NCBI GenBank assembly: GCA_965198065.1
Contig: CBDAON010000004.1
Coordinates: 800,001-864,000, forward strand
Source of the DNA: Longimicrobiales bacterium
Lineage (GTDB): Bacteria > Gemmatimonadota > Gemmatimonadetes > Longimicrobiales > Gaopeijiaceae
DNA length: 64,000 nt
Direction: 5' to 3'
Positions 43,901 to 48,969 of the stretch are shown here, piece after piece (position 1 is the stretch's first letter; each line of letters begins with the position of its first letter). The notes under the pieces are model-generated. The model did not search any database. It saw only the letters and a list, made by a program, of their open reading frames with translations, and was not told the origin of the DNA. The translations under genes were made by a program, and so were the position numbers.

Positions 43901-44446
43901 GAGCCGCCTGGAGGCCGCCCGTCGGCGATCCTTGTACTTCCCGATCCCCGCCGCTTCCTCGAACAGGCCCCGGCGCTCTTCCGCACGGTCCGAGAGGATC
44001 ACGTCGATCATCCGATTCTCGATGACCGCGTACGCGTTGGTCCCGAGCCCCGTATCCCGACACAGGTCGTGAATGTCCTTGAGTCGGCACGAGGACCGGT
44101 TCAGGAAGTATTCACTCCTGCTGCCGTCTCGATAAACCGTCCTCGCGAACTCCACTTCCTGGAAGGGGACGGCCAGGACGCGATCCTCGTTCCCCACCTC
44201 CATCGAGACGGAGGCGCGGTTCACGGGACGGCGGTTCACGGTGCCCTGGAAGATCACCTCCTCCATCTTCGCGCCTCGAATCGCGGTCGGGCGCTGCTCA
44301 CCCAGGACCCACCGGATGGCGTCCGCGAGGTTCGACTTGCCGCAGCCGTTCGGACCCACGATGGCCGTAATGCCGTCGTGGAAGACGATCTCGGTCCGAT
44401 CCGAGAAAGACTTGAAGCCGTGAAGTCGGAGGGCTCGGAGCTTCAT
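40925..44446 (-). CDS. smc: Chromosome segregation ATPase SMC
   Basis: GFKSF, GPNGCGKSN, coiled coils and hinge, LSGGE and MDEVDAPLD. Confidence 0.97.
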   Translation of the reverse strand: MKLRALRLHGFKSFSDRTEIVFHDGITAIVGPNGCGKSNLADAIRWVLGEQRPTAIRGAKMEEVIFQGTVNRRPVNRASVSMEVGNEDRVLAVPFQEVEFARTVYRDGSRSEYFLNRSSCRLKDIHDLCRDTGLGTNAYAVIENRMIDVILSDRAEERRGLFEEAAGIGKYKDRRRAASRRLERAEVDLQRLEDLIGEVQSKVRSLARQKGKAERFGELRRRRLDVEMTLTRAQLAELERSLRDVQTALAGDVADEAGLHGRVAAQESGLETLRIEEASAESERSDSASRVEAIRADLARWERELAVAEEKVEHAEKRMARIDVERSEARGRAAQTETRQSSVTEDIRLRRAELAQVQDEFERHEAEALGIRDALSLARDAVADVEGREREAARRLAQLHGDAEASEARKGELTGRIGQLDRELSEAREALSEAESQGDLFADRVATLFADVETARRGVEEKLAAVGEARPRLQRARDVEMNAQDLCGRLAAERAALDRMERDREGVDPAVRAILERDEDGVLGILADFVMADPEMTATVETSLGVLLKAVVVRDASTASRLAGWFREEWGGGGGLILLPLDRVPPGGGRGGVLDRISPEGAGAPWVQALLDGVELVSPVALATDSTTSGDPLARDGAWIDRRGAFWLGNPQGSSGLLDRRERLRALAVELGRAEDELSRARADREGLASAADTLEEEAERSRSALRDTEDAHRAARAEATTHSEQRTRLEQSIVELESQLAHARSARARGEERAAEGERERESLLLEEESLRERRGETRDRLDEVQERWEASRAREATLTVERTRLEGEDARLVERAEELDRALAEAGTKVEALDRERAELEDEAERIQNLRQEGGAETEALFARLSESEHALGSAEGTLGSLRERVREAEREAKEVRSLEREASEKRHLLELEAQDIAGRDERLRDRLEAEWGRPLQELLDEAGQVDGSPEELQEELREVVEALGRLGPVNLLAVEEHQEEGARLAFLKEQRDDLVRARNDLREAIREINQTATRIFTETFEAICARFQETFHHLFEGGECDVRLADPEDPLESDVEIHAAPRGKRTQRIDLLSGGERALTALSLLFGIYLVKPSPFCVMDEVDAPLDEANIGRFIRLLSGFKEKTQFVVITHNPRTIEAADWIYGVTMEEAGVSSVVGVRLDEAPQVAGV

Positions 44447-45771
44447 CCCCGTGCTTCGGATCTGGCGTCGGGATGGAACAGCGCGAAGGGGGGACTCGAG
44501 ACCGCGATCCCGGTCGTGGACATGAGCCCCGGGATCGTGAAGTATCCGAGCCAGGCGCCGACGAGCACGAGAGCCACGACCAGGAGGAGGAGCACAAGCA
44601 GGAGGGGGCTGACCGCTCGATCCTTCTTCCCCTGCCCCTCCGGGGCGACGCCGGTCGGCTCGGCTTGACCGCGCGCCTCGCCTTCCTCGAACCACTCCTC
44701 AGTGAACGGGGCCGGCGCGGGCGCACGAACGGGTTCGGGTAGCGCGGCGGGAAGGCCAGACGGGGGCGCCGCCGCCTCGGCATCTGGCGCTTCCTCGACG
44801 GCCTCCTCGACTTCGAGCCCTCCCTCCGCGTCAACAGCCCCCTCCACGCCAAGGGGCTCCTCTTCGACGTCCTCCCCGAGGTCAACCGCGCCCTCGAGGT
44901 GAATGGCTTCCTCGACGTCGACAACCTCCTCGACTAGGCCCGGCCCGTTCGGAAGCTCCGTGCCGACGTCCTCTAAGGCGGTATCCCGGGCCTCTTCCTC
45001 GAGAGTCGACCGGCCCTCTTCCTCCTCAGCTTCCCCTACCTCGAGGGGAACGGACCTCTCCAGCTCGAGCGCCCCGCCGGAACCTTCGGCCTCCGGCGCC
45101 GCGGCTTCGAGCGCGTCCGCCGACGGGGCGAGGGCTTCCTCGCTCACCACCTCCTCGACCCCGCTCGCGGTCCGATCTACCGCTTCCAAAGCCTCGTCCG
45201 TCCGAGACGGGGGCGTTGTCTCGGGCGCCACCTTCGTCTCCCCCCCCACGGATGGCGCCGTGAGTCGGTAGACGCGGTCCCCCTCCGCCGCGAGCGCGCC
45301 CACGTCCTCATCTTCCGAGGGAACGTAGAGCACAAGGACGCTCCCCGACTCGCGAAACGCGGCGAGGAGAGAGGACCAGCGGGGGTGGGCGTACACCCGA
45401 CCCACGTCCGCCACGACCGTCCCGGCCGACACGAAGAGGAAACCCGACCCAGGTGGCCTCCGCGCCACCCTGAACGGGGACGCGCCGTACAGCACCATGT
45501 CCGAGAGGCCTTCACCGTCCGTCACACCCACGACACCGTCGAGGCCTGCGCCCGCGAGGTCAGCATCAGCTAGGATCACTCGCCGGCCGGCCGCGCTCCA
45601 TCCGCGAGCGATCGCGATCGCGGTCCGCCCCGGCCAGCCCTGGTCATGTGCGTCCTCGTCGGCCAGGAGCACCACGACTTCTCCCTGCTCGGACGCTGGA
45701 GCGGCGAGGTCCTCCGGGACCGCTGGATACGTCGGATCGACGAGGATGACGTCGGCGGGGTGGCGGGTCAT
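44443..45771 (-). CDS. Hypothetical protein: degenerate MinD/ParA-like domain, acidic linker, C-terminal TM
   Basis: AIARGW..GRRVILADADL...GEGLSDMVLYG with no Walker A, then a very E/A-rich linker and LLLVLLLLVVALVLVGAWLG. Its stop overlaps the smc ATG. Confidence 0.7.
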   Translation of the reverse strand: MTRHPADVILVDPTYPAVPEDLAAPASEQGEVVVLLADEDAHDQGWPGRTAIAIARGWSAAGRRVILADADLAGAGLDGVVGVTDGEGLSDMVLYGASPFRVARRPPGSGFLFVSAGTVVADVGRVYAHPRWSSLLAAFRESGSVLVLYVPSEDEDVGALAAEGDRVYRLTAPSVGGETKVAPETTPPSRTDEALEAVDRTASGVEEVVSEEALAPSADALEAAAPEAEGSGGALELERSVPLEVGEAEEEEGRSTLEEEARDTALEDVGTELPNGPGLVEEVVDVEEAIHLEGAVDLGEDVEEEPLGVEGAVDAEGGLEVEEAVEEAPDAEAAAPPSGLPAALPEPVRAPAPAPFTEEWFEEGEARGQAEPTGVAPEGQGKKDRAVSPLLLVLLLLVVALVLVGAWLGYFTIPGLMSTTGIAVSSPPFALFHPDARSEARG

Positions 45772-45880
45772 TTCTCAACGAGTGTGAGGAAAGGGGCATT
45801 CTAGGGATCGTTCCATCGCTCCGCAATTTGATCCTCCCAATTTGACTTCGAGCGCACCGGTACCCCCCCCAGCACGTCGC

Positions 45881-46237
45881 TCATCCGAAATCTCGTCGAG
45901 GAGCGTCGCCCCAGAGAGCCTCTAGTTGGTAAAACGCGCGGGCCTCGGGGTGGAAGACGTGGACGACAACGTCGATGTAATCCGCGAGCACCCAGCGTCC
46001 CCCCGAGAGCCCCTCAATGTGACTCGGCGGAACACCTTCCGACTTGAGCTCTCGAACCATGTGCTCGGCAATCGAGCGAACGTGCACGTCCGAGGTGCCG
46101 CTGGCGAGGAGGAAGAAGTCGGTGGCGGAGGAGATCCCGCGGAGGTCGAGCGAGACGACGTCCTGCGCCTTCCGTTCCAGCGCGAGCTCCACCGCGCGTT
46201 CAAGGAGGGGGGGAGGGTCCGAGACGGGGCCGCTCAC
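45881..46237 (-). CDS. rsfS: Ribosome silencing factor
   Basis: KAQDVVSLDL, DFFLLASGTS and WVLADYIDVVVHVF..R.FYQLEALW. Confidence 0.95.
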   Translation of the reverse strand: MSGPVSDPPPLLERAVELALERKAQDVVSLDLRGISSATDFFLLASGTSDVHVRSIAEHMVRELKSEGVPPSHIEGLSGGRWVLADYIDVVVHVFHPEARAFYQLEALWGDAPRRDFG

Positions 46238-46271
46238 CGTGGAGGTAGGCGCCGTTCGGTCGGTGGCACCA

Positions 46272-46727
46272 TCAAGCGTCCTCCCGCTCCACCCTGACCT
46301 CGATGCTCACCTCAACCTCTGGCGCGAGTCGAATCGGGACCTGATAGACGCCAATCTCCTTAATCGGCTCTTCCATGAGCACGTGTCGCCTCTCCACCTC
46401 GAAGTCGAGGCCGCGAGCGCCAAGCTCGCCCACGATGTCGGCCACCGAGACGGACCCGAAGAGACGACCTTCCTCGGACGCCCTGGCCGTAAACGAGAGC
46501 GAGATCCCCTCGAGCTGCGAGGAGCGTCTCCGCGCCTCCAGGTATTCGCGCCGGCCGCTTTCCTTCTCGGCCCTCTGCTCCGCTTCCAGCCTCCGCACGT
46601 TGGCTTCCGACGCCTCGTACGCGAGGCCCTGAGGAAGAAGGTAGTTCCTGGCGTACCCGGATTTGACCGACACAACCTCTCCGGCCTGGCCCAGGTTCTC
46701 GATTGTCCTCTTCAGGATCAGCTTCAT
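46272..46727 (-). CDS. rplI: 50S ribosomal protein L9
   Basis: MKLIL..LGQAGEVVSVKSGYARNYLLPQG and GRLFGSV. Confidence 0.97.
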   Translation of the reverse strand: MKLILKRTIENLGQAGEVVSVKSGYARNYLLPQGLAYEASEANVRRLEAEQRAEKESGRREYLEARRRSSQLEGISLSFTARASEEGRLFGSVSVADIVGELGARGLDFEVERRHVLMEEPIKEIGVYQVPIRLAPEVEVSIEVRVEREDA

Positions 46728-46767
46728 GCACCGCTCCCGCGTTGTGAAAAGTCCGTCCCTCGTTTCA

Positions 46768-47700
46768 CTATCTCGGACCACCGCTCCCGGTCGACGGCAA
46801 GCGGGATCGCAGGTCGAGCCACGAGTCACCCATCCCGATCAGGAGCGCGCTAACGAGAAGCAGAGGTGCCGCGAGAAGAAGCGCCAACCCCAGCAGGATT
46901 CCGCCCACGAGCGACAGCCCCCCGAGGAAGAACACGACCACGCCGAAGCCCCTGAGGATGTAGAGGGCTCCCATGAAGGCCACGAGGTTCGTGCCCGCGC
47001 GTCCCCAGCCCGCAGTCCACCCGGTCGTCAGCACAAGCACGACTCCTGCGATGAAGACCCAGATGAGCGCGTCCGGGAACCTGAACTCGCGAAATGGGCG
47101 AAGCCCCTGATCCGAACGGGTCGTTAGGCGGAAGTGCAGCCACCAACCCACGCCCATGGAGGCCAGCGTGCTCAGCGCGACGAGCGAAGGGAACAGAATG
47201 CCCTGCAGCTCGGCCGTGCGAGCCACGGTTTCCTCCAGCTGCGGCCGAACGCTTCCATCAGATAGCGGCGCCACGAGGGCAAGGGTCTCGGAGACACTAG
47301 CCTCGATCCGGTTCACCATGAGAAGCTCCACCGCGTCCCAGCCGTCGGAGGTCAGCAGGATGCCGGCGCCCGCGGCCGTGCCGGCCGCCAACGACCAGAG
47401 CGCCCGCGGCAGGAACGGACGGTTCGGCCAGGCCATCGTGTAAGCTGCGAACGCGCCGCCCACGAGTAGCGCCCACCCCCGTTCCACGTACCAGAGTCCT
47501 CCGGCCGGCGCCGCAGCGAATACGACGGAAAAGGCGACCGCCGCGACGAGGACCGTGAACCACCTCCGCTCCGGAACAACCAGGGTCAACAGGGAGAACG
47601 TGACGCCCACGACGACCAGAGGCTGCCCTACCGCGAGACTGACGGCCAACGCGAAGAGGCCGATGGGCCGGAGCCAGCGCCGCTCCCGGGGTTCGTGCAT
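46768..47700 (-). CDS. YybS/DUF2232-like membrane protein
   Basis: Multi-TM protein with FREFRFPDALIW and GMGDSWLDLR; occupies the usual position between rpsR and rplI. Confidence 0.75.
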   Translation of the reverse strand: MHEPRERRWLRPIGLFALAVSLAVGQPLVVVGVTFSLLTLVVPERRWFTVLVAAVAFSVVFAAAPAGGLWYVERGWALLVGGAFAAYTMAWPNRPFLPRALWSLAAGTAAGAGILLTSDGWDAVELLMVNRIEASVSETLALVAPLSDGSVRPQLEETVARTAELQGILFPSLVALSTLASMGVGWWLHFRLTTRSDQGLRPFREFRFPDALIWVFIAGVVLVLTTGWTAGWGRAGTNLVAFMGALYILRGFGVVVFFLGGLSLVGGILLGLALLLAAPLLLVSALLIGMGDSWLDLRSRLPSTGSGGPR

Positions 47701-47716
47701 CCTCTCTCAGCGACTG

Positions 47717-48355
47717 TTAACGCCCGTGCTTCTGCACGTACGGGAGGAGCGCCAGGTATCGGGCTCGCTTGACCGCCCGACCGAGCTGCCGCTGGAAGCG
47801 TGCGGTGACCTTGGTGGTCCGTCGTGGCAGGATCTTTCCCTGCTCCGTCACGAAACGCGAGAGGGTGCCCACGTCCTTGTAGTTCAGGAGCTCGATCCGG
47901 GGACCCTCTATCCGGCGACGTCGGCCCCGTCCGCCGGAGAACTCGGGTGGCGAGGCCTCCCCGCGGCCGAAGTCCTCCTCCTCCTCCTCGTCCTCCTCGT
48001 CGTCATCCTCCTTCCGGGAGGGACTCGGCGGCGCCTCCGCGAGAACCGACATCCCCGAGGTGGGCTCACCTTCGCCGAAAACCACAAGATACCGGAGCAG
48101 CTCCTCGTCCAGCTTGAGGACGCGCTCAAGCTCGCCGATCGCGGAAGGCTCGGCCGTGAATTGGGCGACGACGTAATAGCCCTGGTGCTGACCCTTGACC
48201 TCATACGCGAGCTGGCGCATCCCCCACTGGTCCACCGCCGTGACCGCGGCACCGTCGCCGCCGGTCACAAGGCCGTGGAACCTGGCCAGCTTTTCGTTCA
48301 CCGCCTCCTCGCCCAGAGAGGGGTGGAACATGTAGACGACCTCGTACTCTCGCAT
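47717..48355 (-). CDS. rpsF-rpsR: Fused 30S ribosomal proteins S6 and S18
   Basis: MREYEVVY...[10 protein letters not shown]...GYY...LLRYLV (S6), an acidic linker, then [22 protein letters not shown]...[19 protein letters not shown] (S18), all in one frame. Confidence 0.9.
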
Positions 48356-48361
48356 GGACAT

Positions 48362-48416
48362 GTTCCCCTTGGTCCGTGTGGTCACGGGCCCCGCCGGCGC
48401 GACGGAGCGGGTGAAG
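48362..48416 (-). promoter_or_regulatory. Candidate S6:S18 autoregulatory leader RNA
   Basis: RNA CUUCACCCGC-UCCGU...ACGGA-CCAA-GGGG: a stem, an unpaired CC, then an SD able to pair with the upstream CCC. Confidence 0.4.
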
Positions 48417-48669
48417 CCTGTGAAGATATGGGCTCTAGCGACCCGATTCAATCCGCTCCGGATCGAAGCGAACCTCCTCGCTGGTGAGCATCTTGATCCT
48501 CGTCACGGATCCCCGGACCACCGGGCCATGCTGGCCCATGAACTCCGGCTGCGCCATGCGCCCGAGGACGGCCAGGGCGCCAGCAGGCATGTTGATCACG
48601 CGACTCCGGCGGGCTAGGTTCGCCGCCCACCGTTCGAGCCCCGGCGCGAACTGCACAAGGAGCGGACCC

Positions 48670-48969
48670 ATGGAGTACAAGGACCCGATCGAGGTTTCCC
48701 CCGGGAACTACCGCCTCTTGCTCGAGGACGGGGACTACCGGATGGTCGAGATGTGGCTGCCCGCCGGCACGAGCGACATCGAGCACTCTCACCCGAACGA
48801 GATGGTGTACTTCATCACCGGAGGCAAGGTGCGGATTAACTTGCCCAGCGCCGATCCGGTGGAGCTGGAAATCCCGGATGGGCACGCCATGAAGCACGAG
48901 CCGTGGACACACACGGTGGAGAACATCGGGGACACGGACATCAAGGCCATCCTGTTCGAGCGTAAGTAA
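48670..48969 (+). CDS. Small cupin-domain protein
   Basis: HSHPNEMVYFITGG...HEPWTHTVENIG, with SD AGGAG upstream. Confidence 0.85.
   Translation: MEYKDPIEVSPGNYRLLLEDGDYRMVEMWLPAGTSDIEHSHPNEMVYFITGGKVRINLPSADPVELEIPDGHAMKHEPWTHTVENIGDTDIKAILFERK

Follow-up and report, generated by a model that had tools for sequence, protein, structure and literature searches.

One gene encodes ribosomal proteins S6 and S18

Ribosomal proteins S6 and S18 normally pair as separate chains. In the window, the whole stretch of 64,000 nucleotides that was analyzed, both are encoded by one gene, a fusion of rpsF and rpsR that reads through 212 codons to a TAA without an internal stop (Table 1). Each part of the product exceeds the curated cut-off for its family, TIGR00166 (S6) scoring 83.7 bits against 42.9 over residues 1-92 and TIGR00165 (S18) 78.7 bits against 38.75 over residues 153-209. 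Pfam agrees, with PF01250 (S6) at 91.9 versus 27 bits and PF01084 (S18) at 75.6 versus 21 bits. The original prediction, which saw encoded here a single polypeptide made of a complete S6, an acidic linker, and an S18 devoid of zinc-ribbon cysteines, was accurate on all of these points; the protein contains no cysteine anywhere. In the assembly of the source genome (G000; 3.05 Mb, 88% complete), this gene is the sole match to either S6 or S18.

Table 1. Features of the fused locus and its neighbors, in window coordinates
Feature	Position	Strand	Details
rsfS, ribosome silencing factor, downstream	45881..46237	-	TIGR00090, 114.5 bits
rplI (bL9), likely same operon	46272..46727	-	TIGR00158, 121.9 bits; start taken as first Met of matched region
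DUF2232 membrane protein, next gene of likely operon	46768..47700	-	PF09991, 53.2 bits
Fused rpsF-rpsR gene	47717..48355	-	212 aa; ATG 48355-48353, stop TAA 47719-47717
bS18 core	47720..47899	-	Residues 153-212; YKD and K196/R197/R199 retained, zinc ligands absent
Junction motif [18 protein letters not shown]	47900..47953	-	Residues 135-152; replaces S18 N terminus and CxxC knuckle
Acidic run [13 protein letters not shown]	47972..48010	-	Residues 116-128; variable linker, predicted disordered
S6 C-terminal extension (EGEPTSGMS...)	48026..48073	-	Residues 95-110; conserved, also in split relatives
bS6 domain	48074..48355	-	Residues 1-94; includes RQLAY interface loop and R88
S6:S18-binding leader RNA (S6S18CBM-type)	48365..48412	-	CCC pairs with SD GGG; hairpins H2 and extra H3; unpaired CCA just before SD

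The gene has neither an S6 stop nor an S18 start, and two separately translated chains are thus not what it encodes. As had been claimed, no ATG or GTG separates the acidic run from the S18 core, and no TTG does so either; an in-frame ATG (M102) lies upstream of the acidic run, with no stop before it. The absence of ssb or priB between the two domains, also pointed out originally, is true and nothing special, since split Gemmatimonadota loci likewise have rpsF directly followed by rpsR.

Tests in E. coli, described in passages of PMC4647458, show which S6 and S18 residues matter for pairing and RNA reading, and these residues are kept in the fused proteins. W44, R47, A50, Y51, and R88 of the S6 part are invariant. 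For the S18 part, the comparison covers 147 distinct proteins, which is what 166 fused loci come to once duplicates and partial genes are removed. At the S18 interface sites (Y23 and K24 in E. coli), K160 is found in 147/147 and position 159 is Tyr or Phe. In alignments to E. coli-type chains, K196, R197, and R199 correspond to K60, R61, and R63, and the two RNA-reading residues among them, K196 and R199, are present in all 147.

No sigma-70-like promoter was found within 45700-48700. Between rsfS and smc lies a 442-aa ORF (44443-45771, reverse strand) with a long acidic low-complexity middle, a membrane-like C-terminal segment, and no Pfam match. Divergent from the fused gene is a 99-aa ORF (48670-48969, forward strand) that looks cupin-like by eye, with two His-containing motifs, and that has no Pfam match at E 0.001. 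Elsewhere in G000, bS21 apparently starts at a TTG with a strong SD-like stretch ahead of it (locus L300).

Distribution of the fusion

An indel artefact had been considered unlikely, and rightly so. A contig from one sequencing run, which may be the assembly's own source, covers the whole fused stretch with 0 differences, and a contig from a second study covers it with 4 substitutions and 3 extra letters whose place is not listed. An RNA run gave a 151-nt contig over the S6 part only, which demonstrates neither expression nor the junction. Isolated read-through artefacts do occur in databases, many single SSB-S18 joins among them, but the chance that a stop codon went missing here through faulty assembly or sequencing is negligible: 285 genomes across dozens of genera are fused, contigs of two studies span the gene, and the S18 start codon itself has been lost. 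This explanation is already refuted by the family-wide pattern.

Of 314 genomes of the family searched, 301 gave a match and 13 did not. The fusion is in one frame in 285/301 (150 plus 60 unbroken two-domain matches, 5 loci read, and 70 of 86 further genomes), so that the close relatives are certainly not all split. Among the 16 others, only two are truly split (G181 and G182). Four have a broken frame, yet with the fused-type motif and no S18 start, and are likely assembly errors; one has an N gap, seven are cut by contig ends, one shows the S6 part only, and one is foreign-looking (G318). At the G318 locus (L198, in a 60%-complete genome), rpsF is split and accompanied by an ssb-like ORF and an rpsR of the zinc type; it thereby differs from the rest of the family and is likely a contaminating contig.

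Outside the family, all 16 genomes from two sister families give two separate matches, and the 6 loci read are all split. A phylum sample of 68 outside-family genomes contained no unbroken full-length match, and 20/20 loci read were split. A second fusion elsewhere in the phylum was considered because five genomes had equal open-frame lengths for both matches, and was rejected on these 20 loci. In another Gemmatimonadota family (f5; L248, L249, and three more genomes), rpsF and rpsR are in the same frame with one stop between them, and are unfused. The suggestion that the fusion could serve as a clade marker thus holds for the family and the outside loci read, but the marker is not absolute, because two family genomes are split and because our search for proteins matching both the S6 and S18 profiles also found fusions in about 40 other clusters.

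The fused family, which belongs to the Longimicrobiales, likely corresponds to GTDB UBA6960 and overlaps Gaopeijiales: genus UBA2982 is placed under f__UBA6960 in Table S5 of PMC11651109, and UBA6960 genomes appear in its Tables S9 and S10. Cultured strains of Gaopeijia maritima, likely of the same lineage, are described in parts of that paper.

Linker, junction motif, and loss of the zinc site

The linker varies widely across the 147 fused proteins, in length (33-172 aa) and in acid fraction (0.13-0.63). While an acidic linker is indeed present, as predicted, it is not new, for in the loci read the S6 of split relatives ends in the same kind of run; on the sequences compared, the acidic run is an ancestral S6 tail turned linker. 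In genera g37, g39, g50, and g52 (L111-L169), the linkers are much expanded and rich in Ala, Gly, Glu, and Asp, giving proteins of up to 345 aa. Genus g54 (L191, L193, and L194, in genomes of about 2 Mb) has fused proteins without the PPEF part and much of the acidic run. At L122, DUF2232 is missing, and the fused gene is immediately followed by a bL9-like start.

Downstream of the acidic run, the two residues of a PP pair are kept in 144 and 140 of the 147 proteins, and a new, family-specific segment, EFxGxRGRRRRxEGP, stands between this pair and the S18 core. The codons of the junction vary synonymously while the protein sequence is conserved, which indicates a constraint at the protein level and led us to reject an RNA-level signal in the junction. 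It follows that the stretch before the S18 core is translated.

The zinc ligands (CxxC..C..H) are present in all 38 split S18 sequences read, about 28 of which come from loci of the Gemmatimonadota phylum and the remainder from other phyla. By contrast, none of the 147 fused proteins has a cysteine in its S18 part. General zinc sparing was rejected, because L28, L31, L32, L36, and S14 of G000 retain their cysteines, and the loss of the zinc site is therefore specific to S18. L33 and rpoB gave no match in the incomplete (88%) G000 assembly. Separately, the sole L31 found in G006 (L298) is of the long, cysteine-free type, the zinc type being found in G000, G182, G038, and G039.

Origin of the fusion

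The two split members of the family are informative. In G181 and G182, the acidic tail of S6, a TAG, one codon, and the ATG of S18 follow each other in the same frame, and their S18 starts with M(A/P)PP and has zinc ligands. In an RpoB tree of 25 genomes, G182 falls outside all 15 fused genomes sampled, with a support of 0.63 as sister of the fused clade and 0.97 for the family; G181 had too little RpoB to be placed. A tree of the S18 core groups the fused S18 with those of G181 and G182 (support 0.99), and split loci account for each of the 15 S18 cores that are closest in identity. When other zinc-free fusions are added, the fused S18 moves towards these with a support of 0.70, and a native-origin S18 clade has a p-AU of 0.63 on 58 columns, a value that neither rejects nor proves it. 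In the S6 trees, two sister-family sequences branch between those of the family or within them.

Our best reading of these data is one in-frame stop loss near the base of the family, with the native S18 becoming zinc-free. The ancestor would have had an S6 with an acidic tail, a TAG, one codon, and an in-frame S18 ATG, and G181 and G182, with their one in-frame stop and zinc-type S18, are likely a surviving intermediate state. Loss of the TAG would have turned the S6 tail into a linker; S18 would have been deprived of its start and of its four zinc ligands, and the fixed PPEFxGxRGRRRRxEGP would have taken the place of the knuckle.

A retained leader RNA precedes the fused gene

Beyond what had been predicted, the locus shows two further features: the conserved Arg-rich junction motif in place of the zinc knuckle and a retained leader RNA of the S6:S18-binding type. 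In the sections of PMC3854524 and PMC3895269 that define it, this type of leader combines a helix that contains the SD with a hairpin and with a CCR left unpaired ahead of the SD. By exhaustive parsing, the motif is found in 139/143 distinct fused leaders versus 0/429 shuffles. In 23 aligned leaders, 98.8% of the cells are paired, compared with 31-53% in slid controls, and two-sided changes occur in three H2 pairs. CCG or CCA is present in 139/139 leaders and unpaired in 101/139 MFE folds; it lies 1 nt before the paired G run, as against 2-3 nt before the SD in the relevant part of PMC3854524. In folding stability the source leader does not exceed shuffled sequences (z -0.18), and P1 and most of H3 never vary, with P1 forming in only 80/139 MFE folds. 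Rfam gave no S6S18CBM-type match at E<=5, though release 15 may hold no model of the motif, and its scan returned only a chance-level ALIL match inside rplI.

In E. coli, according to passages of PMC4647458, the leader RNA cuts translation fourfold upon overproduction of both S6 and S18. By analogy, the fused chain likely represses its own mRNA through the retained leader.

Predicted structure and fate of the fused chain

We modeled the protein with AlphaFold2. In a first model, built on 116 close sequences, only S6 folded and S18 had a pLDDT below 50. A second, built on 119 diverse rows, reached a mean pLDDT of 85 and a pTM of 0.77, values that may lean on the known pair, as its alignment includes standalone S6 and S18. 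In this model, pLDDT is 96-98 for S6, about 84 for the S6 extension (residues 95-110, with a short predicted strand at 104-105), 84-96 for the S18 core, and about 51-63 for residues 111-150. The conserved junction motif is disordered in the RNA-free model. In a Foldseek search, the best 50 rows all match the S6 part, which superposes closely on bS6 chains (E 2e-11; TM 0.94 by target length; rmsd 1.0 Å to 8cwo_F), and among PDB sequences, not one of the 60 best matches extends over both domains.

We favor, at roughly three chances in four, an inherited in-frame rpsF-rpsR fusion whose product is likely one chain that folds as an S6:S18 pair and binds both the 16S platform and its own leader. The chain would fold as a normal S6:S18 pair whose halves a flexible acidic loop connects, and its incorporation into the 30S platform is likely, given that it is the sole copy and that key residues are conserved. 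By the same conserved residues and the published E. coli work, K196 and R199 of S18 would read a CC of 16S rRNA, and surplus protein would bind the CCR bulge of the leader, hold the SD in its helix, and lower its own translation. The fusion would enforce a 1:1 S6:S18 stoichiometry and remove the pairing step. The natural covalent heterodimer originally proposed is thus natural and a single-gene fusion, its single-chain state being likely on sequence grounds.

Might the chain be a precursor from which a protease, cutting perhaps at the conserved PPEF/SG, frees S6 and S18 in their ordinary form? In favor of this, a disordered, exposed linker is directly followed by a short motif under strong conservation, in which Phe precedes a small residue and then basic ones, presumably resembling the Prp site of L27 precursors. 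However, a Prp gene (PF04327) was found in 0/5 genomes searched (G000, two other fused, and two split), of which one is listed as 100% complete and G000 as 88%, in a search whose controls matched in 3/14. Genus g54 is fused yet has no PPEF, and the PP pair is explained as the old N terminus of S18; cleavage is therefore unlikely. We give still less credence to an internal start that would also yield free S18 and hence mixed ribosomes. An ATG, GTG, or TTG does occur within 30 codons of the S18 core in 95/147 fused proteins, one position being ATG in 44 and GTG in 15, and the GAG-rich acidic codons are SD-like. Against this, the other 52 proteins have none, the source gene included, and 68/147 carry His or Ile at the most frequent candidate position, so that no internal start is conserved; an SD-like 4-mer is found at 9/59 with a start-capable codon versus 14/88 without; and S6 would still exist only as a fusion. 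This makes such a start very improbable.

A further possibility is a platform remodeled by the linker or by the Arg-rich motif, with an altered mRNA selection as the result; one example would be a retention of the anti-SD of the kind seen in Bacteroidia, where bS6, bS18, and bS21 form a pocket that sequesters the 16S tail (passages of PMC9976891). The new motif has six Arg, and bS21 is present in G000. Nonetheless, the 16S tail of G000 is canonical, and SD-like 4-mers precede 393/936 of its starts (42%) versus 14-15% in two controls, while SD use is 45/112 in fused and 55/147 in split genomes (p=0.70), in counts on 120-140-kb samples from three fused and three split genomes, obtained with a crude gene caller and ATG starts chosen regardless of SD. 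Bacteroidia-type SD blindness is rejected by these counts, and no change in mRNA selection appears. The idea that the acidic loop acts on the mRNA/anti-SD platform fared poorly, because the run is an S6 tail older than the fusion, varies five-fold in length, and is modeled with low confidence; we regard the platform reading as distinctly improbable, and return to the single chain acting as an S6:S18 pair.

Other S6+S18 proteins

Among the best 150 of 12,991 matches in a 50%-identity library, 46 match both S6 and S18, and 40 of these are not of the fused family's type; an intact zinc site is lacking in every one of the 40. The list is biased by a query that is zinc-free too, and many S18s that stand alone have no zinc site either; any association of zinc loss with fusion is thus no more than suggestive. 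Twenty of the 40 were looked up at 90% identity: 16 proved to be singletons and the other 4 have 2-5 members, and several of the 40 look like chimeras or read-through errors. A search with a zinc-type S18 gave one S6+S18 protein (P0134) among the matches listed (120 of 133), and a search with a foreign S6 (9 matches) gave another (P0244). The two are singletons of the zinc type, each with a linker Met, and could represent read-through errors. About 19 proteins in which SSB (PF00436) is joined to S18 (P0144-P0229) are also among the matches listed; nearly all are singletons, and they are probably read-through errors.

We can only tentatively propose, as an idea that may well be wrong, that an S6 tether recurrently substitutes for the zinc knuckle of S18, that the family adds an Arg-rich platform segment, and that the chain is both a ribosome part and its own repressor. 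Substitution of the knuckle by the tether would explain why 147 plus 40 fusions have no intact zinc site while 38/38 split S18 have one. Were it true, the role of S6:S18 pairing in 30S assembly would be directly testable with a natural single chain.

Comparison with known systems

We found no report of a natural S6-S18 fusion in the literature searched, which was covered mostly at abstract level and largely outside subscription journals. The words "fusion" and "fused" are absent from PMC3353972, and the term "ribosomal protein" from the portions of PMC11651109 and PMC9426454 available to us; PMC2837039 mentions fused proteins in 9/213 clusters, unnamed in main-text passages. Databases contain the fusion unremarked: two JGI names give both proteins, and three Atlas clusters (55-162 members) carry both Pfam families. 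Since annotations mostly say S6 only, S18 can seem to be missing from genomes of the fused family. The fusion offers a clear-cut natural example in which two core ribosomal proteins are joined across a large, widespread family, and a ready-made single-chain S6:S18 for probing the pairing step, in 30S assembly and autoregulation, and the purpose of the S18 zinc site.

Among the closest known systems is the bS6:bS18 heterodimer (PDB 1g1x; E. coli 7k00). The fused protein passes the curated cut-offs, conserves the interface and RNA-reading residues, occupies the operon position before rplI, and has a predicted S6 fold within an rmsd of 1.0-2.3 Å of solved chains for most top rows. It differs in being one chain instead of two and in the new junction motif that replaces the S18 N terminus. 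With C-minus (zinc-free) bS18, as presented in parts of PMC9976891, it shares the absence of all zinc ligands; unlike a zinc-starvation paralog, however, the fused S18 is the sole copy, and it likely derives from the native zinc form. The likeness to anti-SD sequestration in Bacteroidia lies in the same proteins at the same platform site, whereas SD use in G000 equals that of split relatives. As for the S6S18CBM/rpsF leader (sections of PMC3854524, PMC3895269, and PMC4647458), the SD-holding helix, the hairpin, the unpaired CCR, and the K60/R63 equivalents are all kept; here, though, the putative effector would be a single chain, and the fused family has an extra H3, seen by eye also in its two split members and absent in sister families. 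Overall, this is a real, family-wide fusion, likely of single origin, that would do the work of the canonical S6:S18 pair without being two-chain.
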